NCBI GenBank assembly: GCA_963846305.1
Contig: CAWJVK010000002.1
Location: 22,690 to 86,689 of the forward strand
Length of the DNA stretch: 64,000 nt
Direction: 5' to 3'
Source: an uncultured Gammaproteobacteria bacterium
GTDB taxonomy: Bacteria; Pseudomonadota; Gammaproteobacteria; Steroidobacterales; Steroidobacteraceae
Shown here piece after piece: positions 5,209-51,163 of the stretch. The first letter of the stretch is position 1. Each line of letters begins with the position of its first letter. The notes below the pieces were generated by a model that was given only the letters and a program-made list of their open reading frames with translations, ran no database searches and had not been told where the DNA came from. The translations under genes were made by a program, and so were the position numbers.

Positions 5209-5895
5209 TCAGTTCGCGCGGCGGCGCTTGGCCAGGCCGAGGCCCAGCAGGCCGAGGCCGAGCAGAGCCAGCGAAGCCGGCTCCGGGACCTCGGTGACCA
5301 GGTCCTGCTTGTCGGGCGTACCAAGGTTCGAGAGCAGGCGCAGGTTCGCCATCGGGCCCTGGCCGTCAAGCAGGGCAAGCCAGGCAGCGGCCTGGGTCAC
5401 GGCGGCATACGTGGCGGCTGTGCCGGGCGCCTGGAAGTTGCCGGCCGACAGGTCGATCACGTTGTCCACGGCCAGTTCCCACAGGGCGATCTGGAAGGCG
5501 GCTGCTTCGACGGACGTGTCGACCGAGGAGTAGAAGCGGCCCCACAGCTCGCGGACGTCCATGTCGGAGATGATCGACACGGCGTAGCCGGCCCTGTCGA
5601 ACGCGAGCAGCGGCAGCTCCGGCTCGATGCAGAAGGCCAGGAAGCGGGTCCAGTTGCCCGTGGAACCAGTGTTCCGGTAGACGAGGTCGAACACGCCCAT
5701 GTCGTGATTTACCTGTTCGCCGTACACGTTCACGGCACCGCGCAGGTACAGGTTGGTCGGTCCGAAGACGCCACCCGAACCCTGGCCCACGTTCACGACG
5801 TCGCCACTGTTGAGGGAGTTGGCCGAGGCCGAGGCGGCGGTGAAAAGACCGCAGACCGCGGCAGCGCTGGCAATCCATTTTGTAGTCTTGAGCAT
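5209..5895 (-). CDS. PEP-CTERM sorting-domain secreted protein
   Basis: ORF 5209..5943 trimmed to ATG 5895 (MLKTTKWIASAAAVCGLFTAASASA signal peptide). C-terminus VPEPASLALLGLGLLGLGLAKRRRAN matches the PEP motif + TM helix + Arg cluster. Confidence 0.85.
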   Translation of the reverse strand: MLKTTKWIASAAAVCGLFTAASASANSLNSGDVVNVGQGSGGVFGPTNLYLRGAVNVYGEQVNHDMGVFDLVYRNTGSTGNWTRFLAFCIEPELPLLAFDRAGYAVSIISDMDVRELWGRFYSSVDTSVEAAAFQIALWELAVDNVIDLSAGNFQAPGTAATYAAVTQAAAWLALLDGQGPMANLRLLSNLGTPDKQDLVTEVPEPASLALLGLGLLGLGLAKRRRAN

Positions 5896-5964
5896 TTCGG
5901 TGGTCCCTGAGTTGCTAAACCGTTTCAAGTGCAAGGCCAACATGGCCTGTGACGGGTGAAGATA

Positions 5965-5980
5965 TGCAGGACCCGTGCCA
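5965..5980 (-). promoter_or_regulatory. sigma-54 (-24/-12) promoter of PEP-CTERM gene 5209..5895
   Basis: The minus strand reads TGGCACGGGTCCTGCA. GG and GC have the canonical spacing of the consensus TGGCACG-N4-TTGCW. About 70 nt upstream of the ATG. Confidence 0.6.
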
Positions 5981-6010
5981 ACTTTGGCTTTTCGCAGGAA
6001 TTTATTTTAA

Positions 6011-6023
6011 AAACAACGCGTTA
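6011..6023. promoter_or_regulatory. IHF-like site between the putative UAS and the sigma-54 promoter
   Basis: AAACAACGCGTTA versus WATCAANNNNTTR (one mismatch). Embedded in an unusually AT-rich tract (ggaatttattttaaaaacaa). Confidence 0.3.
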
Positions 6024-6065
6024 CGGAATTTACGTATCGCCATTCAGTGCGGCGAATTTGCCGAC

Positions 6066-6083
6066 TGTAAGAAATTCCGACAG
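6066..6083. promoter_or_regulatory. putative enhancer (UAS) motif TGTAAG-N6-CGACAG
   Basis: TGTAAGAAATTCCGACAG preceded by GCCGAC. The same gapped 12-nt motif, in the same orientation, occurs at 10313..10330 upstream of the second sigma-54 promoter. TGT-N11-ACA dyad. Confidence 0.4.
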
Positions 6084-6106
6084 CCCGGCGGCAATCCGGG
6101 CGGCAT

Positions 6107-7360
6107 TCACGGCCGCTCGGGCTGGGGGTGCCATGCCGTGATGCCGCCGCGGATGCGCTCGGACAACCGCACCGTGCCGGACGCATGGGCACTGTATACG
6201 ACGAACCGGTCGTCCGGGTCGAGCGCGATGATGGACCAGCGCTCTAGCAGCCGGCGCGCCGCAGGGTGAACGGGATCCAACACGAGGTGACGCATTCCGT
6301 AGCGTGTCTCCTCCCGGTCGAGTTCGGCGTTCCACTTCATCTTGTATTGGAAGACGCCGTCTTCGAGGTACGGCGGCGTGCCGCCCATCTGTACACGTCG
6401 CAGCCCGAGTTCGCGTGCGCGCTGGATCGCGAACCAGTACAGCGCCGACAGCGCGCCTTGCTTCACCAGCGCGGGATCGCCGTGCAGCCAGCCCAGGCGT
6501 CCCATCCGGTAACCACCCGGATGCGGCTCGCAAGTCATCGCTGCGATGCAACGCTCGCCCTGTTTCACCAGCAGAAATTCCCAACCGTCGTGTTTGACGG
6601 ACTTGGCGATCTCCCGGGCGGTCGCGACGAAGCCTTCGCTGCCGTGCCGCCCAGTGATGCTGATCATGTGGTAGTTGTGGACGAATTCGCCGGCCCAACC
6701 GGCGTCGCTGTGGTGCTCCGAGTAAAGCCCGTTCTTGCGGATCCGTCGCAGGTCGGAATGCACGGAATCACCGGAGAAACTGCTGAGAAATGCGTCTTCG
6801 GACTCACCGATATCGACCGTCATCGCGACGAATCGCGGCACGCGCAGCGCGATCGGCTTGAGACGCGCTGGCAACGGCACGCCGGCGATCACGACCAGGC
6901 CGTGGCGGCGTGCCATGCGCAGCGCGAGCGACGAGAAATCCGCGCGGTTGACGCCGCGACGACTGCGCAGCTTCGTCGGTGAGTCGAGATGGACGCGCGT
7001 GAAGTGCTCGATCGGTTCGGGGTTGCCGATGGCGCAGAAGGCGGCGGCGCTGTCGCCGCCTGGATGGCCTGTGTGGTCGCCGGTGATCACCGCGTGCGAG
7101 TGCGCTCGCCACCAGCGCCTGAGCTTGCGGCGATTGCCCGCAGGAAGGATGCGCTTGAAGTAGGAGAGCAGTCGACTCACTGACAGCCTTCCGGAAACCG
7201 GCGGGCGTGGTGGTGCGATGAGAAGCGGGGATATCTCGGCATGGCTCGCGGACGGCGCTGCGCTAGGAGGTTGTCGTTTCCGGAAGAGTAATCGATTCAA
7301 GCGAGGTAGCGACTCGCGTTGTGTGACTGGGGTCGAATCCTGGAGCGTTCGCGCGAGCAA
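6107..7360 (-). CDS. FemAB/GNAT-like acyltransferase-fold protein (start uncertain)
   Basis: 417-aa ORF. The C-terminal half (LLVKQGERCIAAM...GALSALYWFAIQRARELGLRRVQMGGTPPYLEDGVFQYKMKWNAE) looks like a FemAB/Acetyltransf_6 fold. The only upstream ATG is at 7360. Confidence 0.5.
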   Translation of the reverse strand: MLARTLQDSTPVTQRESLPRLNRLLFRKRQPPSAAPSASHAEISPLLIAPPRPPVSGRLSVSRLLSYFKRILPAGNRRKLRRWWRAHSHAVITGDHTGHPGGDSAAAFCAIGNPEPIEHFTRVHLDSPTKLRSRRGVNRADFSSLALRMARRHGLVVIAGVPLPARLKPIALRVPRFVAMTVDIGESEDAFLSSFSGDSVHSDLRRIRKNGLYSEHHSDAGWAGEFVHNYHMISITGRHGSEGFVATAREIAKSVKHDGWEFLLVKQGERCIAAMTCEPHPGGYRMGRLGWLHGDPALVKQGALSALYWFAIQRARELGLRRVQMGGTPPYLEDGVFQYKMKWNAELDREETRYGMRHLVLDPVHPAARRLLERWSIIALDPDDRFVVYSAHASGTVRLSERIRGGITAWHPQPERP

Positions 7361-8281: not shown

Positions 8282-8956
8282 TCACGGGATCGTCTTCGAG
8301 GCCATCGCGGACGGTTCGCTCTCGACGCCGGTGTTGGTGTAGGAGGTGACGTTGAAATACCACGTGCCGCGCGTCAGTCCGCCTACCGTCGACTGCGTGA
8401 CATTTGGACGGCTCACCTGGATGAGCCTGTCCAACGAGTTCCTGTTGGTCCCGTAACGGACCTTGTAGCCGGCAAGGTTGGTGAGCGCGCTACCGTCGGC
8501 GTTACGTGTCGGCGCAACCCAGCGGACCGTCGCCGACCCAGTACTGCTTGCGGCGGCCCGCACATCGATCCTGAACGAGCGGAGATAGGTGGAGGCCTTG
8601 CCGTCGGAGGCTGCGATCCTGATGTTCTTGTAGGTGCCGATGTTCGCTGCGGTCGGCCTGCCGTACAGGCGGCCGGTCCTGTTGTCGAATCTCGCCCACG
8701 ACGGCTTGTTCGAGATGGCGAATGAAATTTTCTGGCCGTCCGCATCAGACGCCTTGGGACGGAATGAGTAAGCCTTGCCGACGACGACGGTCGCTGGAGG
8801 CGTACCCGTGATCGACGGTCTGCGGTTGGCGGTTGTCGCCGAACTGCCAAGGTTCACCGGGTTGCCAATATCTGCGGCGTCGCTTGCGGTGAACACGAGC
8901 AACAGGGTCGCCATCACGACGAATGGTCGAATCCTTGAGGGCTGGGGTATGTGCAT
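8282..8956 (-). CDS. secreted protein with an Ig-like (putative-Ig/cadherin-like) domain and a C-terminal FN3 domain
   Basis: 224-aa ORF with a signal-like N-terminus. ITGTPPATVVVGKAYSFRPKASDADGQKISFAISNKPSWARFDNRTGRLYGRP is typical of 'putative Ig' repeats. The FN3 tail ATVRWVAPT...GTWYFNVTSY is paralogous to the tail of 7516..8229. Confidence 0.7.
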   Translation of the reverse strand: MHIPQPSRIRPFVVMATLLLVFTASDAADIGNPVNLGSSATTANRRPSITGTPPATVVVGKAYSFRPKASDADGQKISFAISNKPSWARFDNRTGRLYGRPTAANIGTYKNIRIAASDGKASTYLRSFRIDVRAAASSTGSATVRWVAPTRNADGSALTNLAGYKVRYGTNRNSLDRLIQVSRPNVTQSTVGGLTRGTWYFNVTSYTNTGVESEPSAMASKTIP

Positions 8957-9432
8957 TTTTCAGTCCTGTCGAACTGGCAGCCCCGCTATCCATCGCACGT
9001 GAGTGCGCTTGGACCGGAGGCTTTGCGTCCCCGCATTTCGGCGGGTATGCAGTCTCGGAGACGAGCCAGAAAATGAAACGGCGGCCAGGTCCAGCCGCGG
9101 GTCACAGGCAACTGGCGAGCGCTTGCGCTCGGTTCAGTGCGGTGGCCGGGACCGGACCCAGGGTGCCTCGGGGGCCACTACCATGGGCGGGGGCGGATTA
9201 TGGGAAATGACGCGTCGCAACACAATATGTAGTGTGCAGAAATATTCGAATCTGGCGCGAGGAGGCGCCTTGTGCGTGGCGAGCGGCCCAGGGGGCGGCC
9301 CAGGGAGCGGCCCGGCCCGAGTGTGGCGGCGTTCCCGGTCCTTTTGGCGTTATTTGCCTTTATGTTCAGCAAGTTATGGCGCGGCGAGGACCACCCCGGA
9401 AAACCGGGATGTCCCCGCCCGCCCGCGGATCG

Positions 9433-9456: not shown

Positions 9457-10170
9457 TCAGGCCCTGGTCCGACGGCGCGCAAAACCCAGCCCGGCGAGGC
9501 CGAGCCCGAGCAGCGCCAGCGAGGCCGGTTCCGGCACCTCGGTCCTGTCGAAGGCTAGGTTGTCGAATTCGAACGCGTACTGGCTGGACGTCGCAACGAT
9601 GCGGTTGAAGGCCAGGTCGGACAGGATGTTGACGTACAGCGTGCCGTTCACGCCCTGGTCTCCGTTCGGGCTGCCGACCACGCTGCTGCCGGTGAGCGAG
9701 CCGACCAGCGTTGCGTCGTTGTAGAACGACAGCGTGTTGTAGTTGTCAACGGAGCCCCAGAGCAGGCCGAAGTACTGGTGGCCGGCGCCCGGCAGCAGGA
9801 TTTCGACAGACGCATTCGAGAACGCGCCGGTGGAACCGGTCGTTGCGTAGTGGGTCGTGTCCACGCCGTTCGCCTGGTTGGGGCTGCCAAAGCCTGTGCC
9901 GTTGCCGCCCGAGAGGAACGGCGCAGCGTACTGGCCGCTGACCGCGCCGGTCACGGTCTGGCCGTTGCCGTAGAAATTGACGTTGATTCCGCTCTGCGGC
10001 GATACGCCGCCGGTCGAGCCCAGGCTGAGCCAGTCGAGGTTGTCCTGCACCGAGCCAGCGGATGCACCGCCAACCGAGCCGCTGACAGTAAGCGTGGCGT
10101 GTGCGGGGAAGCTTGCCGCCAGCGTCGCCAGCACAGCGGTGGCCAAGGCCAGTCGAGTCTTGATGGTCAT
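9457..10170 (-). CDS. PEP-CTERM sorting-domain secreted protein
   Basis: 237 aa. Signal peptide MTIKTRLALATAVLATLAASFPAHA. C-terminus VPEPASLALLGLGLAGLGFARRRTRA. Confidence 0.9.
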   Translation of the reverse strand: MTIKTRLALATAVLATLAASFPAHATLTVSGSVGGASAGSVQDNLDWLSLGSTGGVSPQSGINVNFYGNGQTVTGAVSGQYAAPFLSGGNGTGFGSPNQANGVDTTHYATTGSTGAFSNASVEILLPGAGHQYFGLLWGSVDNYNTLSFYNDATLVGSLTGSSVVGSPNGDQGVNGTLYVNILSDLAFNRIVATSSQYAFEFDNLAFDRTEVPEPASLALLGLGLAGLGFARRRTRA

Positions 10171-10221: not shown

Positions 10222-10238
10222 ATGCAGTTTGCGTGCCA
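10222..10238 (-). promoter_or_regulatory. sigma-54 (-24/-12) promoter of PEP-CTERM gene 9457..10170
   Basis: The minus strand reads TGGCACGCAAACTGCAT with canonical GG/GC spacing. About 50 nt upstream of the ATG. Same TGGCACG-N4-CTGCA form as at 5965..5980. Confidence 0.6.
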
Positions 10239-10244
10239 GCTGCG

Positions 10245-10257
10245 TAAGTGCTTGATT
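10245..10257 (-). promoter_or_regulatory. IHF-consensus site just upstream of the sigma-54 promoter
   Basis: The minus strand reads AATCAAGCACTTA, which fits WATCAANNNNTTR at every fixed position. Confidence 0.35.
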
Positions 10258-10312
10258 AGGTACCGTGCGCCGGAAACCCGCGCCGTCGATGGGCCGTGCC
10301 GCCGCCCGCCGA

Positions 10313-10330
10313 TGTAAGGGCGCGCGACAG
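10313..10330. promoter_or_regulatory. putative enhancer (UAS) motif TGTAAG-N6-CGACAG
   Basis: TGTAAGGGCGCGCGACAG preceded by GCCGA. Counterpart of 6066..6083. Centre lies about 85 bp upstream of the -24 element. Confidence 0.4.
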
Positions 10331-10361: not shown

Positions 10362-10414
10362 TAAATCGGTGCCTGGCACCGAATTAATAAATAGGTGCCT
10401 GGCACCTATTTATT
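10362..10414. repeat. REP locus B: doublet (variant-arm unit + canonical unit)
   Basis: TAAATCGGTGCCTGGCACCGAATTA followed by AATAAATAGGTGCCTGGCACCTATTTATT. The canonical unit contains the TAA stop of the regulator gene (10410-10412). Confidence 0.9.
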
Positions 10415-11669
10415 TGAATTCTTCGGGTTCGACGCCGTGGCGCGACAGTAGCTTGTAGAAGTCCGTGCGGTTGCGCTTGGCGAGCCGTGCTGCCTGGCTG
10501 ACGTTGCCCTGCGTGACCTGCAGCAGCTGCACCAGGTAGCTACGCGTGAACTCGTCACGCGCTTCGTCGAAGCTCGGCAGCTGTGTCAACTGGCCCTGTG
10601 CCTCCTGCACCTGGTCGGCGGTAATCACCGCGCCTGCGCCGGTCGCGGCAGCCTGGCGCACGACCATGCGCAACTGCCGCACATTGCCCGGCCAGCGCGC
10701 GGAGGCCAGCAGTTCCATCGCCTCCGGCGAGCAGCTGCGCTTCGCCTGCGATGCTTCGGCGGCCACGTCGTCCAGGCACTGCTGGACCAGCAGCGGGATG
10801 TCCTCGCGCCGCTTGCTGAGCGGCGGCAGCTCGATGTGCACCGCACCGAGCTGGTCGATGAGATCCCGTGAATCCCGATCGTCGCCGGCCAGGTCGTCGG
10901 GCCCGCGGTCACTGCTGGCAACGACGCGCGCCTGCCGGCGGTCGAGCAGTCGCGCGAGGCATGGCCGCAGCGCCGTCGGCAGTTCGTCAACGTCGATCAG
11001 GAACAGCGTGCCTGCGCCTGCACTGGAAACCGCCGCGGTGATCTCTGCCTCGCCGGTTGCAGGGTCCAGCTGCCCGCAGTCGAGCGACACGAACGCCGCT
11101 TCGTTGCGGGCACTCGCCCGGTGGATGGCCTTGGCGAGCAGTTCCTTGCCGGTGCCCGGCTCGCCGGTGACCAGCACCGCTGCGTCGGTGCCCGCGACCA
11201 TGTGCGCCTTCGCGAGGCGCTCTTCCATCAGCGGGCTGCGGGTCGCGAATTCGGCGCGCCAGTCATCGCCACCGCTGTCGGAAAAGCCCGAGGTCTTCAG
11301 CGCACGCCGGACCTCTTCGAGCAGCTGGTCCTTGTCGACCGGCTTGGTGAGAAATGCAAACGCACCCGACTGAGTGGCCTTCACCGCGTCCGGGATCGTG
11401 CCGTGCGCGGTCAGCATGATGACGTTCAGGCTCGGCCAGCGACGCTGCAGCTCGCGCAGCAGTGCGATGCCGTCCATCTCGGCCATGCGCAGGTCGGTCA
11501 CGACGAGGTCGGGCCGGAAGCGCGACACGGCGGCCAGCGCTTTCGCCGGACCGTCCACGGGCTCGACCACGTAGTTCTGCGAGCGCAGCCGGATGGTGAG
11601 CAGGCGCAGCAGTCCCGGGTCGTCGTCGACGACGAGGATGTGCGGCGCGCGGCGGGCAGGGCGGGACAT
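10410..11669 (-). CDS. GlrR/QseF-like NtrC-family response regulator with a degenerate AAA+ core (no GAFTGA)
   Basis: ORF 10410..12152 trimmed to ATG 11669 (MSRPARRAPHILVVDDDPGLLRLL...). Receiver domain, Walker A GEPGTGKE, and a Fis-type HTH tail GNVSQAARLAKRNRTDFYKLLSRHGVEPEEFK that is very close to my recollection of E. coli GlrR. The ELFGH..GAFTGA segment is absent. Confidence 0.8.
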   Translation of the reverse strand: MSRPARRAPHILVVDDDPGLLRLLTIRLRSQNYVVEPVDGPAKALAAVSRFRPDLVVTDLRMAEMDGIALLRELQRRWPSLNVIMLTAHGTIPDAVKATQSGAFAFLTKPVDKDQLLEEVRRALKTSGFSDSGGDDWRAEFATRSPLMEERLAKAHMVAGTDAAVLVTGEPGTGKELLAKAIHRASARNEAAFVSLDCGQLDPATGEAEITAAVSSAGAGTLFLIDVDELPTALRPCLARLLDRRQARVVASSDRGPDDLAGDDRDSRDLIDQLGAVHIELPPLSKRREDIPLLVQQCLDDVAAEASQAKRSCSPEAMELLASARWPGNVRQLRMVVRQAAATGAGAVITADQVQEAQGQLTQLPSFDEARDEFTRSYLVQLLQVTQGNVSQAARLAKRNRTDFYKLLSRHGVEPEEFK

Positions 11670-11855: not shown

Positions 11856-12047
11856 ATGCGCACCAACATCGTCATCGACGACCGATTGATCGCCGAGGCC
11901 ATGCGGCTTTCGGGGGCCGCTACCAAGAGGCAGGTCGTCGAGGACAGCCTGCGGCTGATGGTCAAGCTGAAGCGCCAGGAGCAGGTGCGGGAGTCGCGCG
12001 GCAAGCTGCGTTGGACGGGTGACCTGGACGCGATGAGGCGCGACTGA
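11856..12047 (+). CDS. vapB: type II antitoxin, VapB-like
   Basis: 63 aa, MRTNIVIDDRLIAEAMRLSGAATKRQVVEDSLRLMV... GGAG lies 7 nt upstream of the ATG. Immediately followed by a PIN toxin gene. Confidence 0.8.
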   Translation: MRTNIVIDDRLIAEAMRLSGAATKRQVVEDSLRLMVKLKRQEQVRESRGKLRWTGDLDAMRRD

Positions 12048-12059
12048 CGCGGCGCGACC

Positions 12060-12455
12060 GTGATCGTCGTTGATACCTCGGTCTGGATCGATCACTTCAA
12101 CGGTGAGGACACGCCGCAGGTGTCGCGACTTGCCGCGCTGCTGGGCCAGCAAATGCTAGCCGTCGGCGACCTGGTGCTGGCCGAACTCCTGCAGGGCTTC
12201 TCGACCGAGGCGGACGCCAGGGCCGCGCTGGCCTACCTCGCGCGTTTCGACCTGGTGGCAATGGCGGGGCCGGAGATTGCGATCGAATCCGCTGCCAACT
12301 TCCGTCGCTTGCGACGCCGCGGAGTGACCATCCGCAAGACCATGGACATGCTCATCGGCACGTACTGCCTGGTGAACAATCACGAACTGCTGCACGATGA
12401 CCGCGATTTCGACCTGCTCGCGGAACACCTCGGACTCAGGGCGCTGCGCGCCTAG
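12060..12455 (+). CDS. vapC: type II toxin, VapC (PIN-domain ribonuclease)
   Basis: GTG start. MIVVDTSVWIDHF..., with acidic PIN residues (D5, E in LAELLQG, D in DDRDFD). Confidence 0.85.
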   Translation: MIVVDTSVWIDHFNGEDTPQVSRLAALLGQQMLAVGDLVLAELLQGFSTEADARAALAYLARFDLVAMAGPEIAIESAANFRRLRRRGVTIRKTMDMLIGTYCLVNNHELLHDDRDFDLLAEHLGLRALRA

Positions 12456-12468
12456 CAGCGGGCGGGAT

Positions 12469-13125
12469 TCACGGCCGCGGCGGCGCCGCGTCGGGCACTG
12501 GCTCCGGCGCCTGGTCCTGCTCTTGTTCCTGCAGCGATCGCTCCATCTCGGCGACTGCCTCGAGCTTGCGGTTGGCTTCCGCGAGCTGCTTCTTCAGTCG
12601 CGCGTTGTCGGTCGCCAGTGCGTCGGCCCGCTTCAACGCGCCGCTGTCACTGGCCTTGAGTTTCTGCTCGGAATCCTCGCGTTGCCGCGCGAGTTCGGCG
12701 TAGAGCGCGACGCGCGCGTCGAACTCACGCAGGAAAGAGTTGGCGAGTTCGAGCTCCTGCGCACCGAGGTCGTTCGGCTCGGCCAGCAGGGTTGCCAGCA
12801 GTCGCTTCGCCTCGACCGGATTGCTGTCCTTGTGGCCGGCCGCGCCCAGCGCGAGCGCGTAACGAAGCTTGTTGGCCGCTGTCGGCGCCTGCCTTGCGGC
12901 AGCGAGCGCGGCGGCGAGCTCGGACTGCTGCCGGGCCGGGTCGCCGGGGGCCATGTCGGCGAGCGTTTCGAGGTATGGCGCCAGGCTCTCCGGGGCCGGG
13001 GCCAGCGCGGCAGGGGGCGGTTGCGGAGGCGGGGTCGCGGACCGTGGCCCCAGCCCGGCGCAGGCGCCCAGCAGTGCGAACGACGTCATCAGTGAGAGTG
13101 CGGTGGCTGCGCGTTGGGCTGTCAT
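12469..13125 (-). CDS. QseG/YfhG-like coiled-coil lipoprotein (middle gene of the three-component system)
   Basis: ORF 12469..14091 trimmed to ATG 13125 (MTAQRAATALSLMTSFALLGAC lipobox). Pro-rich linker, then a heptad-like acidic/Lys-rich C-terminus. The start overlaps the kinase stop (ATGA at 13122-13125). Confidence 0.6.
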   Translation of the reverse strand: MTAQRAATALSLMTSFALLGACAGLGPRSATPPPQPPPAALAPAPESLAPYLETLADMAPGDPARQQSELAAALAAARQAPTAANKLRYALALGAAGHKDSNPVEAKRLLATLLAEPNDLGAQELELANSFLREFDARVALYAELARQREDSEQKLKASDSGALKRADALATDNARLKKQLAEANRKLEAVAEMERSLQEQEQDQAPEPVPDAAPPRP

Positions 13126-14705
13126 GGCGTGGCGGCTTGTTGCTGGGGGGGGCTGTTCGATTGGCTGGCGGGGGCGGTGAATGGTAGTGGCCCGGCCGAC
13201 TGCCCGGCCACCTGCAGTTGCACGCGGAAGTGCGCGCCGGGGAAGTCGCCGTCCACCATCTCGATCGTGCCGCCGTGGGCCTGCACGAATTCCTGGACGA
13301 CCGAGAGCCCGATGCCGGTGCCGCGCACCAGCCCGCCTTGCGGCGTCCGGCCCTGGTAGAAGGCTTCGAAAACGCGCGACCTTTCGTCGGCTGGGATGCC
13401 GGGCCCGGTGTCGGCGACGTCGATCGCGAGCCTCCCGCCGTCGAGTTGCGCGCGTACGGTGATGGTGCCGCCGTCGGGCGTGAACTTGACCGCGTTCGAC
13501 ACCAGGTTGTCCAGCACCAGTCGCAGCTTGGCACGGTCGGCCTTGATCTCGACGTCGTCGATCGCCAGGTCGAGCCCGAGCCGCCGCGCGCCCAACTGCA
13601 GGCGGTAGGGCTCGATTGCCGAGTCGACGAACGGCGCGAGCCTGAACGCACTCACGTCGAGACCGCCGCGCCTGGCCTGCCATTCGCTGTAGGAGAGCAG
13701 GTTCTCGATCAGGCGCTGCAGGCGCAGGCTGTTGTCGCGCAGGATGTCGGCGACCTCTCGCTGCCCGTCGTTCAGGTCGCCGACCGCGCCCTCGAGCATC
13801 AGCTCCGACCCTTCGCGGATGTTGGCGAGCGGCGTCTTCAGTTCGTGCGACATGTGGCGCAGGAAGCGATTGCGCTCCTCGGAGATTTCGCCGAGCCTCA
13901 GGCGCAGCCACTCGAGCTGGCGGGCGAGCGCCCGCAGGTCGGTCGGGCCCTGCTCGGTGACCGGCACGTCGAGGCGACCCTGGCCGATGCGCCCGATCGC
14001 CTCGTCGATGCGGCGGATCGGCCGCGCCAGGAACAGCGTGAACAGCAGCATCAGCCCGATCGTGACCGGGATCAGCGCCGCGCTCTGCCATAGGATGCGT
14101 CGCCGCGCGCCTTCGGTCTCGGCGCGCAGTGCCTTCAGCTCGCGATCGGTCTGGCGTCCGGCGAGTCGCGACAGCTCACCGGCGGCGCGCGAGAGCTGCG
14201 TGAACTGCCGCAGCGCCTCGTTGACGTCCGCCGCCTGCTGTGCCTCGAGGCCCTGCTCGATCGTCGTGAGCATGGTCCGCATGTGGCTGGTCACGCTGGC
14301 GCGGTCCGGGTCGCCGGGCAATTCCTCGAGTCCGCCGAGCGTCGTGTCGAGCAGCACGCGGTTTTCCTTGAAGATCGCCAGCAGCCCAGGCCGGCGCAGG
14401 ATCTGGTAGAGGCGGGCGGTGCGTTCCAGTGACGCAACCTGCCGCACGATCGACTGCGTGTATTGAGTGGCCGCGACGCCGTTGGCCACCAGTCGTTCGC
14501 TGGACTGGGCGAGGTCGCGCATCTCGACCGCTGCGCCCAGCGTGCCGAGCAGCAGCGGCAGCGCCACCGCTGCGAAGCCGAGCAGGATCAGTCCGCTCAG
14601 CGAGCGTGGGCGCCAGGAGGGAAAACCGATGGGGCGGCTGCGATTCACGCGCGCATTGTGACGCGTTCGGCGCGTATATTCCTCCGGTGCCTTCGCAAGC
14701 GTCAC
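13122..14705 (-). CDS. GlrK/QseE-like HAMP sensor histidine kinase
   Basis: Two TM segments, HAMP, H-box RNRFLRHMSHELKTPLANIREGSELM, HATPase (DTGPGIP, GTGIGLSVV). Collinear with my recollection of E. coli GlrK. The start may instead be GTG at 14648. Confidence 0.8.
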   Translation of the reverse strand: MTLAKAPEEYTRRTRHNARVNRSRPIGFPSWRPRSLSGLILLGFAAVALPLLLGTLGAAVEMRDLAQSSERLVANGVAATQYTQSIVRQVASLERTARLYQILRRPGLLAIFKENRVLLDTTLGGLEELPGDPDRASVTSHMRTMLTTIEQGLEAQQAADVNEALRQFTQLSRAAGELSRLAGRQTDRELKALRAETEGARRRILWQSAALIPVTIGLMLLFTLFLARPIRRIDEAIGRIGQGRLDVPVTEQGPTDLRALARQLEWLRLRLGEISEERNRFLRHMSHELKTPLANIREGSELMLEGAVGDLNDGQREVADILRDNSLRLQRLIENLLSYSEWQARRGGLDVSAFRLAPFVDSAIEPYRLQLGARRLGLDLAIDDVEIKADRAKLRLVLDNLVSNAVKFTPDGGTITVRAQLDGGRLAIDVADTGPGIPADERSRVFEAFYQGRTPQGGLVRGTGIGLSVVQEFVQAHGGTIEMVDGDFPGAHFRVQLQVAGQSAGPLPFTAPASQSNSPPQQQAATP

Positions 14706-51033: not shown

Positions 51034-51163
51034 GCGCGGCCTTTTTTCACAACCAAAACCGCACACGTACCGGCACATGTGGCTGGGTGCCTGCCAGGCC
51101 GAGAGGCCTCGCGGGTTGCCACATGGGGTGCGTGGAGGCTCAACCCCACAAGGAGTTTTCGAT

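Follow-up and report, generated by a model that had tools for sequence, protein, structure and literature searches.

A GlrR-lineage response regulator without sigma-54 contact loops in an uncultured Steroidobacteraceae lineage

What does a response regulator of the sigma-54 activator type do, when the loop with which such proteins contact sigma-54 is missing and the gene is nevertheless kept together with its signalling partners? This question is raised by the gene at positions 10410-11669 (minus strand) of a 64,000-nucleotide stretch of DNA, in the following termed the window, which is part of contig CAWJVK010000002.1 (assembly GCA_963846305.1) of an uncultured member of the Steroidobacteraceae. 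A preliminary description of the sequence had reported a GlrR/QseF-like regulator lacking the GAFTGA motif, which occurs with an intact cognate kinase and lipoprotein and directly upstream of a sigma-54 promoter. The analysis presented here suggests that the gene product is probably an atypical enhancer-binding protein (EBP) which arose from a former sigma-54 activator in this uncultured lineage and which binds DNA under the control of phosphorylation, independently of sigma-54.

The gene product comprises 419 amino acids and is composed of a receiver, an AAA+ and a Fis-type helix-turn-helix (HTH) domain according to its translation and to Pfam. The receiver domain (residues 11-120, positions 11310-11639, minus strand as all parts of the gene) was recognized by the Response_reg model with an E-value of 7.6e-31. 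It is followed by the AAA+ core (residues 143-285, 10815-11243), to which the Sigma54_activat profile (PF00158) could be aligned with 67.8 bits (gathering cut-off 20.2), covering only profile positions 3-128 of 168 and residues 143-253 of the protein. Within this core a Walker A motif, GEPGTGKE, is retained (residues 169-176, 11142-11165). The AAA+ lid (AAA_lid_14, PF25601, 2.7e-19) extends over residues 286-357 (10599-10814) and carries the sensor-II motif RRED. The C-terminal HTH domain (residues 365-419, 10413-10577) was assigned by alignment to GlrR from Escherichia coli and by its substitution pattern, the Pfam match to HTH_8 being weak (E-value 0.011); its recognition helix RNRTDFYKLLSRH is almost identical to the respective segment of E. 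coli GlrR, RNRTEFYKLLSRH. Among the NCBIfam models GlrR (NF011695) ranked first by a wide margin with 387.1 bits, followed by NtrC (215 bits) and PrsR (181 bits), and the annotated GlrR of E. coli K-12 shares 43% identity with the window protein over the full length (E-value 6e-111). The GlrR/QseF-like character named in the preliminary description is thereby confirmed, though the score of 387.1 bits falls short of the equivalog cut-off of NF011695 (763 bits). An assignment to PrsR (TIGR02915) was rejected, as the score of 181.4 bits was far from the cut-off of 502.6 bits and well below that for GlrR.

Two segments of the AAA+ core are missing. In alignments to NtrC1 from A. aeolicus and to E. 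coli GlrR, gaps of 8 and 7 residues fall on the region ELFGHxxGAFTGA, that is on loop L1, and gaps of 9 and 4 (or 3 and 10) residues on loop L2, which adds up to 15 + 13 = 28 missing residues. Canonical orthologues of the same family allowed the deletions to be placed exactly: they correspond to FGHEKGAFTGAIRTH (15 amino acids) and to about 13 amino acids of QVRPVGSTDAMAV. The scar of the 15-residue L1 deletion (FGHxKGAFTGAxRxH) is located between residues 210 and 211 (11037-11042), and that of the L2 deletion of about 13 residues, ahead of sensor I, between residues 245 and 246 (10932-10937). The Walker A motif and the aberrant segment LDPATGEAEITAAVSSAGAGTLFLIDVDELP, both quoted in the preliminary description, were found at residues 169-176 and 201-231, respectively, and the reported loss of GAFTGA, ELFGH and about 28 residues was reproduced in all alignments. 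In a six-frame scan of the gene, none of the frames contained ELFGH or anything resembling GAFTGA, apart from a lone and spurious match to the ELFGH pattern (EFFGF, plus strand, 10416-10430); a rescue of the motif by a frameshift or an alternative frame, which had already been doubted, was therefore rejected.

The decay extends further than initially described, since the Walker B motif and the arginine fingers are degenerate as well. The Walker B remnant TLFLID (residues 221-226, 10992-11009) reads LFLID in place of the canonical LFLDE, with Asp replaced by Ile and Glu by Asp, and Gln takes the place of the second Arg of the arginine-finger motif FREDLYYRL. Walker A and the sensor-II motif are intact. 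Loop L1 with its GAFTGA motif, supported by L2, engages region I of sigma-54, and ATP hydrolysis depends on the Walker B motif and the arginine fingers. Because L1 with GAFTGA and in total about 28 residues are missing, the protein should be unable to remodel the sigma-54 holoenzyme, in agreement with the earlier expectation, and we infer that it can neither activate this holoenzyme nor hydrolyze ATP. By descent, the regulator is a GlrR orthologue. As GAFTGA, L2 and the catalytic residues are absent or degenerate and the equivalog cut-off is missed, it is not filed here as a functional GlrR in the strict sense; its properties would rather place it among the atypical EBPs.

A homologue search over about 5.8 billion proteins revealed more than 120 clusters with 71-100% identity to the window protein and 415-436 amino acids each; they originate from NCBI, ENA, JGI and Logan assemblies, and the named ones derive from Steroidobacteraceae. 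In an alignment of 133 related sequences of this short form, both the L1 and the L2 deletion were present with identical boundaries in all 133. Within the same alignment the Gly and Lys residues of Walker A are conserved to 100% and 99%, respectively. In 95% of the sequences Arg stands in place of the Walker B Asp, so that the Ile of the window protein is an outlier; the neighboring Glu position is occupied by N, D, E or S, and the pair is mostly Arg-Asn or Arg-Asp. At the first arginine finger most of the clade has Ser or Ala, and Arg is found at the second finger in only 71% of the sequences. Invariant among 65 diverse members are the Walker A pattern GxxGxGK, the sensor-II motif RRED, the receiver residues D15, D16, D59 (the phospho-acceptor), T87 and K109, and most of the HTH domain.

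For a comparison of loci, the best matches were collected as 80 species-level genome loci of the Steroidobacteraceae (L001 to L080). In a neighbor-joining tree of the regulators all L1-deleted proteins, encoded in 18 of the 80 loci, form one group, and the proteins of L015, L017 and L020 represent the sister branch to the doubly deleted members. In these three, L1, Walker B and the first arginine finger are gone, and a segment of L2 length remains in scrambled form. As this branch is devoid of L1 and still has an L2-length segment, the loss of L1 appears to precede the excision of L2. The decay thus seems to have been stepwise: the L1 deletion and the loss of Walker B and of the first arginine finger are common to the whole clade, and L2 was apparently excised later and in a subclade only. 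Elsewhere in the Steroidobacteraceae, the positional orthologues keep GAFTGA or GSFTGA. The short form is best understood as a lineage trait and neither as an artefact nor as a pseudogene.

Selection acting on the individual domains was assessed by pairwise ratios of nonsynonymous to synonymous substitutions (dN/dS, Nei-Gojobori), canonical orthologues of similar dS serving as the control. For the receiver, dN/dS was 0.02-0.16 within the short clade and 0.01-0.11 among canonical orthologues, and for the HTH domain 0-0.08 and 0-0.13, respectively. The lid domain showed values of 0.03-0.24 (0.51 in the comparison to the most distant member), those of the control being 0.04-0.25. For the AAA+ core 0.13-0.56 was obtained in the short clade vs. 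0.03-0.14 in the control, and for the 23 residues around the L1 scar the ratio reached about 1 in some pairs of the short clade. The whole-gene values of the short clade ranged from 0.10 to 0.35. Receiver and HTH domain of the short clade are constrained as strongly as in canonical orthologues. On the AAA+ core constraint has eased four- to five-fold, but purifying selection persists. Despite the loss of its catalytic and sigma-54 contact elements, the core is predicted to keep its fold: an AlphaFold2 model based on 65 clade members showed a compact AAA+ core with pLDDT values (the confidence score of the model) of 83-93 and a normal order of strands and helices including the beta-alpha-beta arrangement. 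The best matches in the PDB, both by sequence and by fold, were three structures of NtrX from Brucella abortus, followed in the fold comparison by NtrC1, LuxO, NtrC4, VpsR and FleQ.

The loss of GAFTGA is not restricted to the short clade. A canonical G[AS]FTGA motif is present in 37 of the 80 loci and GAFSGA in four, and in 21 loci a regulator of the long form carries a substituted or partly deleted motif, the remaining 18 being the L1-deleted proteins. The 21 altered long forms were found among L018 to L080, with the regulator at about 6001-7340 of the locus, and include GAFAGA, GAFPGA, GSFPGA, GAAAGA, GAVAGA and DAFPNA as well as deletions of 1 to 18 residues; partial deletions of GAFTGA occur in L021, L033/L069, L062 and L080. 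They occur at scattered places in the tree, and the DE of Walker B and FREDLYYRL are kept in almost all of them. Likewise, the canonical motif is absent in 43 of the 109 closest full-length representatives of clusters at 50% identity, but both this sample and the 80 loci were picked by similarity to a degenerate query, which biases the proportions of GAFTGA loss upwards. The substitutions and deletions seem to have originated several times independently of one another, and this repeated uncoupling within a single orthologous group points to a sigma-54-independent role of the regulator. It is conceivable, and we propose it tentatively, that the glrK-qseG-glrR loci of the Steroidobacteraceae form a natural series of repeated sigma-54 uncoupling. 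The short clade would be the end state of this series: devoid of ATPase activity, gated by phosphorylation, acting with sigma-70 or as a repressor, and carrying a conserved Arg at the position of the Walker B Asp. If this is true, the GlrR-type regulator of this family has an important sigma-54-independent function, which keeps the gene under selection after GAFTGA has been lost.

The signalling partners named in the preliminary description are intact. The gene at 13122-14705 (minus strand) encodes a GlrK/QseE-like sensor histidine kinase, in which Pfam recognized HAMP, HisKA and HATPase domains and which shares 34% identity over 422 amino acids with E. coli GlrK (E-value 5e-72). Its stop codon overlaps the start codon of a gene for a lipoprotein of 218 amino acids with the lipobox LLGAC (12469-13125, minus strand). 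The similarity of the latter to YfhG/QseG is weak (PF13942, 2e-4, and NF007997, 9.6e-5, both below the cut-off; BLASTP to E. coli QseG, E-value 0.019); its position is conserved throughout the 80 loci. Taken together, the locus is regarded as a homologue of glrK-qseG-glrR (qseEGF) in the order kinase, lipoprotein, regulator. The order SrkA-like kinase, (epimerase), sensor kinase, lipoprotein and regulator is maintained in the 80 loci wherever the contig reaches, and it is alike for short and long forms of the regulator. The same flanking genes identify the short proteins as positional orthologues of the regulators of about 448 amino acids which carry GAFTGA or GSFTGA. In the window genome a vapB-vapC (PIN) toxin-antitoxin gene pair (11856-12455, plus strand; PF09957, 2.2e-13; PF01850, 2e-11), which is absent from the preliminary description, is located between the lipoprotein and the regulator gene. 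None of the 80 related loci yielded VapB or VapC matches, so the pair is unique to the window genome and is most simply explained as a recent insertion which split the operon and stands outside the kinase-regulator system. Disrupted genes were seen in two of the related loci: the regulator gene of L014 (6001-7272) seems to carry a frameshift in the stretch from Walker A to the lid domain, and the kinase of L015 (2966-5400) is broken into several open reading frames (ORFs). These represent either errors of the metagenome-assembled genomes (MAGs) or true pseudogenization in some members of the clade.

The second part of the paradox, a sigma-54 promoter next to a regulator that should be unable to use it, dissolves when the neighboring genes are taken into account. 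The promoter itself exists as described: a sigma-54-type sequence, TGGCACGCAAACTGCA, is located at 10223-10238 (minus strand), 172 nt beyond the stop codon of the regulator gene. It is however situated 53 nt upstream of a PEP-CTERM gene (9457-10170) and is predicted to serve this gene. The pattern TGGCAC-N5-YTGCW occurs twice in the window, with 0.18 matches expected, and the second match (5965-5980, minus strand) lies 22 nt upstream of the other PEP-CTERM gene (5209-5943). A 17-mer of the form TGTCG-N7-TTACA is found 72-83 nt upstream of each promoter, at 10313-10329 and 6066-6082, this motif having been derived post hoc from the two sequences of the window. The copy at 10313-10329 (minus strand), TGTCGCGCGCCCTTACA, represents a predicted PrsR site. 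The window therefore contains two copies of a two-part PEP-CTERM box (TGTCG-N7-TTACA, 72-83 nt, TGGCAC-N5-CTGCA) at 5965-6082 and 10223-10329, both on the minus strand, and the latter region, identified by motif scans, is listed here as context only. The architecture corresponds to that of proteobacterial PEP-CTERM genes, in which a 17-nt motif ending in TTTACA is separated by a spacer of 32-92 nt from a sigma-54 promoter and which has been ascribed to the EBP PrsR (Haft et al., 2006; PMC1569441).

The blocks of 17-mer and promoter are conserved in L001, the closest relative, and the DNA in between has diverged. A PEP-CTERM gene next to the regulator was found only in the window and in L001 among the 80 loci, so that of the earlier claim the site remains and its connection to the regulator does not. 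Most likely, the promoter at 10223-10238 is served by a PrsR-type EBP encoded elsewhere in the genome, and the two boxes imply that the organism possesses a PrsR/sigma-54 regulon. A conserved sigma-54 promoter adjoining the operon was detected in none of the 80 loci, and the idea that canonical orthologues have such a promoter which was lost in the short clade was rejected accordingly. A strong sigma-54-type sequence TGGCAC-N5-TTGCT on the plus strand was observed between the kinase and lipoprotein matches of L015 (4499), L017 (4534) and L020 (334); it is limited to these three intermediate loci, in which L1 is deleted and L2 retained, and the other loci are without it.

How could the regulator work, if it is a phosphorylation-controlled DNA-binding protein independent of sigma-54? 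The GlrK-like kinase would still phosphorylate D59, and phosphorylation would still govern oligomerization and DNA binding. The catalytically dead AAA+ domain would serve as a scaffold for oligomerization, possibly one that binds nucleotides. The output would be repression, or activation at sigma-70-type promoters, in either case without ATP hydrolysis, as for NtrX, VpsR and NtrC from Rhodobacter capsulatus. Several points weigh against this view. DNA binding and phosphorylation of D59 are predicted only, as is the existence of target genes, and the retention of Walker A could be structural and not a sign of nucleotide binding. Part of the protein, namely the relaxed AAA+ core, is drifting. 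Co-expression with the kinase operon is not assured in the window genome, from which the regulator is separated by vapBC, and the presence of sigma-54 in the organism is deduced solely from promoter motifs, i.e., from the two boxes, one of them conserved in L001. Moreover, target sites were not recognizable. GlrR from E. coli activates the sigma-54 promoter of glmY, and its binding sites have the form TGTC-N10-GACA; a site of this type was not found near the locus. The single match in the window lies inside the PEP-CTERM gene 5209-5943 and corresponds to chance level, and the 80 loci contain 17 matches in 842 kb, with perfect but not conserved matches upstream of the kinase gene in three of them. 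GlmY/GlmZ or another Rfam family was likewise not detected near the locus, nor glmY/glmZ in the window. A consensus scan, which is weak in high-GC DNA, gave no recognizable sigma-70-type promoter around the gene, and a terminator scan was unproductive as well.

Of the competing explanations, a phosphate sink or dominant-negative function is unlikely but fares best. The protein would either drain the GlrK-like kinase or block a canonical EBP, by occupying its enhancer sites or by entering mixed rings. A sink would be in line with the receiver as the most conserved part of the protein, but it has no need of an HTH domain, and with dN/dS values of 0-0.08 this domain is constrained like the receiver. 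A dominant-negative protein would be in keeping with the loss of the ATPase and sigma-54 contact elements, and, as may be concluded from the established mechanics of AAA+ rings, a subunit devoid of GAFTGA would poison a mixed ring. A canonical partner to be poisoned was however not encountered: no MAG with a short form occurs twice among the best 80 loci, so that a canonical GlrR paralogue with an identity of about 54% or more did not turn up in them, within the limits of MAG completeness.

That the regulator still acts through sigma-54 is very unlikely. It would have to use a non-canonical contact surface, or to recruit, as a DNA-binding partner in the manner of HrpR/HrpS, an EBP which is proficient in ATP hydrolysis. 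The organism probably has sigma-54, given the sigma-54-type promoters in the window, and Walker A and sensor II are retained. On the other hand both L1 and L2 are physically excised, and to our knowledge these are the only elements which engage region I of sigma-54; Walker B and the arginine fingers have degenerated and differ from member to member of the clade. Besides, the promoters that are present belong to PEP-CTERM boxes with a predicted PrsR site of their own, and no promoter of this kind adjoins the operon in conserved form in the 80 loci.

We consider it highly improbable that the gene is a decaying relic or nascent pseudogene, kept by chance or by polar effects. The relaxed constraint on the AAA+ core with dN/dS of about 1 at the L1 scar in some pairs, the deviation of the window protein from its own clade at Walker B (Ile) and at the second arginine finger (Gln), and the seemingly frameshifted relative L014 would fit such a fate. 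The reading frame is intact, however, in more than 130 distinct sequences with 59-100% identity, at whole-gene dN/dS of 0.10-0.35. Receiver and HTH domain do not exceed 0.16, and both deletions are in frame with identical boundaries. An assembly or sequencing artefact, a general possibility for any metagenome-derived sequence, has a practically negligible chance of explaining the missing segments, as 133 independent sequences, drawn from four data sources, have the same two in-frame deletions and the deletion clade spans 18 species-level MAGs (L1 in all, L2 in most).

Further elements were noted in the surroundings of the gene. Just past the stop codon of the regulator two copies of a dispersed palindrome, GGTGCCTGGCACC, are located at 10368-10406 (no strand assigned). 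The repeat count for the palindrome GGTGCCWGGCACC gave 13 copies in the window, with 0.22 expected, at positions 2896-29422 and thus all in the first 30 kb. They often occur at gene ends as pairs 25-27 bp apart (e.g., 8229/8254, 10368/10394, 15671/15697 and 21163/21190), and look like a family of repetitive extragenic palindromic (REP)-like elements or bidirectional terminators. A function of the GGTGCCTGGCACC palindromes as a locus-specific enhancer was rejected, because the 13 copies are dispersed and the same spot in L001 has none. A cyclic di-GMP-I riboswitch (RF01051, 63 bits, gathering cut-off 35) at 8973-9061 (minus strand) directly precedes the gene 8282-8956 (minus strand), the product of which contains He_PIG and fibronectin-III domains and appears to be secreted. 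A t44 RNA (RF00127, 74.6 bits) is present at 51042-51144 (plus strand).

Names assigned automatically, for instance "GlrR" (JGI/KEGG) or "sigma-54 interaction domain", would give a wrong picture of a whole soil lineage, and proteins of the short clade cannot be counted in sigma-54 regulons. The QseEGF/GlrKR envelope-signalling module would join a short list of two-component EBPs which were rewired away from sigma-54; in a literature search on GlrR and GAFTGA, which yielded two general papers on sigma-54 in Salmonella, no report of GAFTGA loss in GlrR was found. Unusually, intermediates are preserved within the family, with GAFTGA substituted only, with L1 deleted and L2 scrambled, or with both loops excised. 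They could show by which succession of steps a transcription factor of the conventional type arises from an AAA+ activator, and which role the retained Walker A and the conserved Arg at Walker B have.

Among the known systems, GlrK-QseG-GlrR (QseEGF) from E. coli resembles the window system in the three-domain architecture of the regulator and in the order kinase, lipoprotein, regulator. E. coli GlrR (QseF/YfhA) has ELFGHARGAFTGA, the Walker B motif LFLDE, L2 and both arginine fingers, whereas these are missing or degenerate in the window protein. PrsR (TIGR02915), a canonical sigma-54 activator, has the same domain architecture as the window protein, and a PrsR-type box with a PEP-CTERM gene lies immediately downstream of the regulator. 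NtrX from B. abortus (PDB 5M7N/5M7O/5M7P) is similar to the window protein as a member of the NtrC family with a shortened L1 and without GAFTGA. It has been described as an atypical EBP which acts as a repressor (PMC6158489). NtrX however belongs to another orthologous group, the alphaproteobacterial ntrYX, shares about 30% identity with the window protein and retains 11 and 12 residues more at L1 and L2, respectively, so that the excisions in the window protein are the larger ones.

VpsR from Vibrio cholerae has no GAFTGA, carries Asn-Asp in place of the Asp-Glu of Walker B and is a class II-type activator which works with sigma-70 RNA polymerase (PMC6158489). With respect to the loss of GAFTGA and to the altered Walker B motif it is comparable to the short clade, in which Arg-Asn or Arg-Asp prevail. 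In contrast to the window protein, which keeps a canonical receiver and a cognate kinase, VpsR is an orphan regulator controlled by cyclic di-GMP and does not need phosphorylation; the fold match between the two corresponds to about 23% identity. In NtrC from R. capsulatus and Caulobacter crescentus, L1 deletions remove GAFTGA, and both proteins remain under the control of aspartyl phosphorylation and work at sigma-70 promoters; in the case of R. capsulatus NtrC, binding of ATP is required but not its hydrolysis (bioRxiv 10.1101/2023.06.06.543975). These proteins share with the window protein the lineage-specific loss of GAFTGA in an orthologous two-component EBP, but are orthologues of NtrC and not of GlrR. 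Caulobacter NtrC keeps and needs Walker B, and its deletion of 8 residues is smaller than that of the window protein; an L2 deletion is not reported in the same study.

Atypical EBPs without GAFTGA, some of which also have non-consensus motifs for ATP hydrolysis and which act with sigma-70 or as repressors, comprise TyrR, HupR, HsfA, PhhR, NtrX and VpsR (PMC6158489) as well as NtrC from R. capsulatus and Caulobacter (bioRxiv 10.1101/2023.06.06.543975). The homology of the window protein to EBPs, the absence of GAFTGA and the non-consensus motifs for ATP hydrolysis would assign it to this class. The anomaly that stood at the beginning is thus real as far as the loss itself is concerned, but it is less odd than it seemed, since EBPs devoid of GAFTGA have already been described as a class (PMC6158489; bioRxiv 10.1101/2023.06.06.543975). 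The most interesting point of the analysis is the recurrent decay of GAFTGA across the Steroidobacteraceae, and to the known class of atypical EBPs it adds a lineage of the GlrR type.

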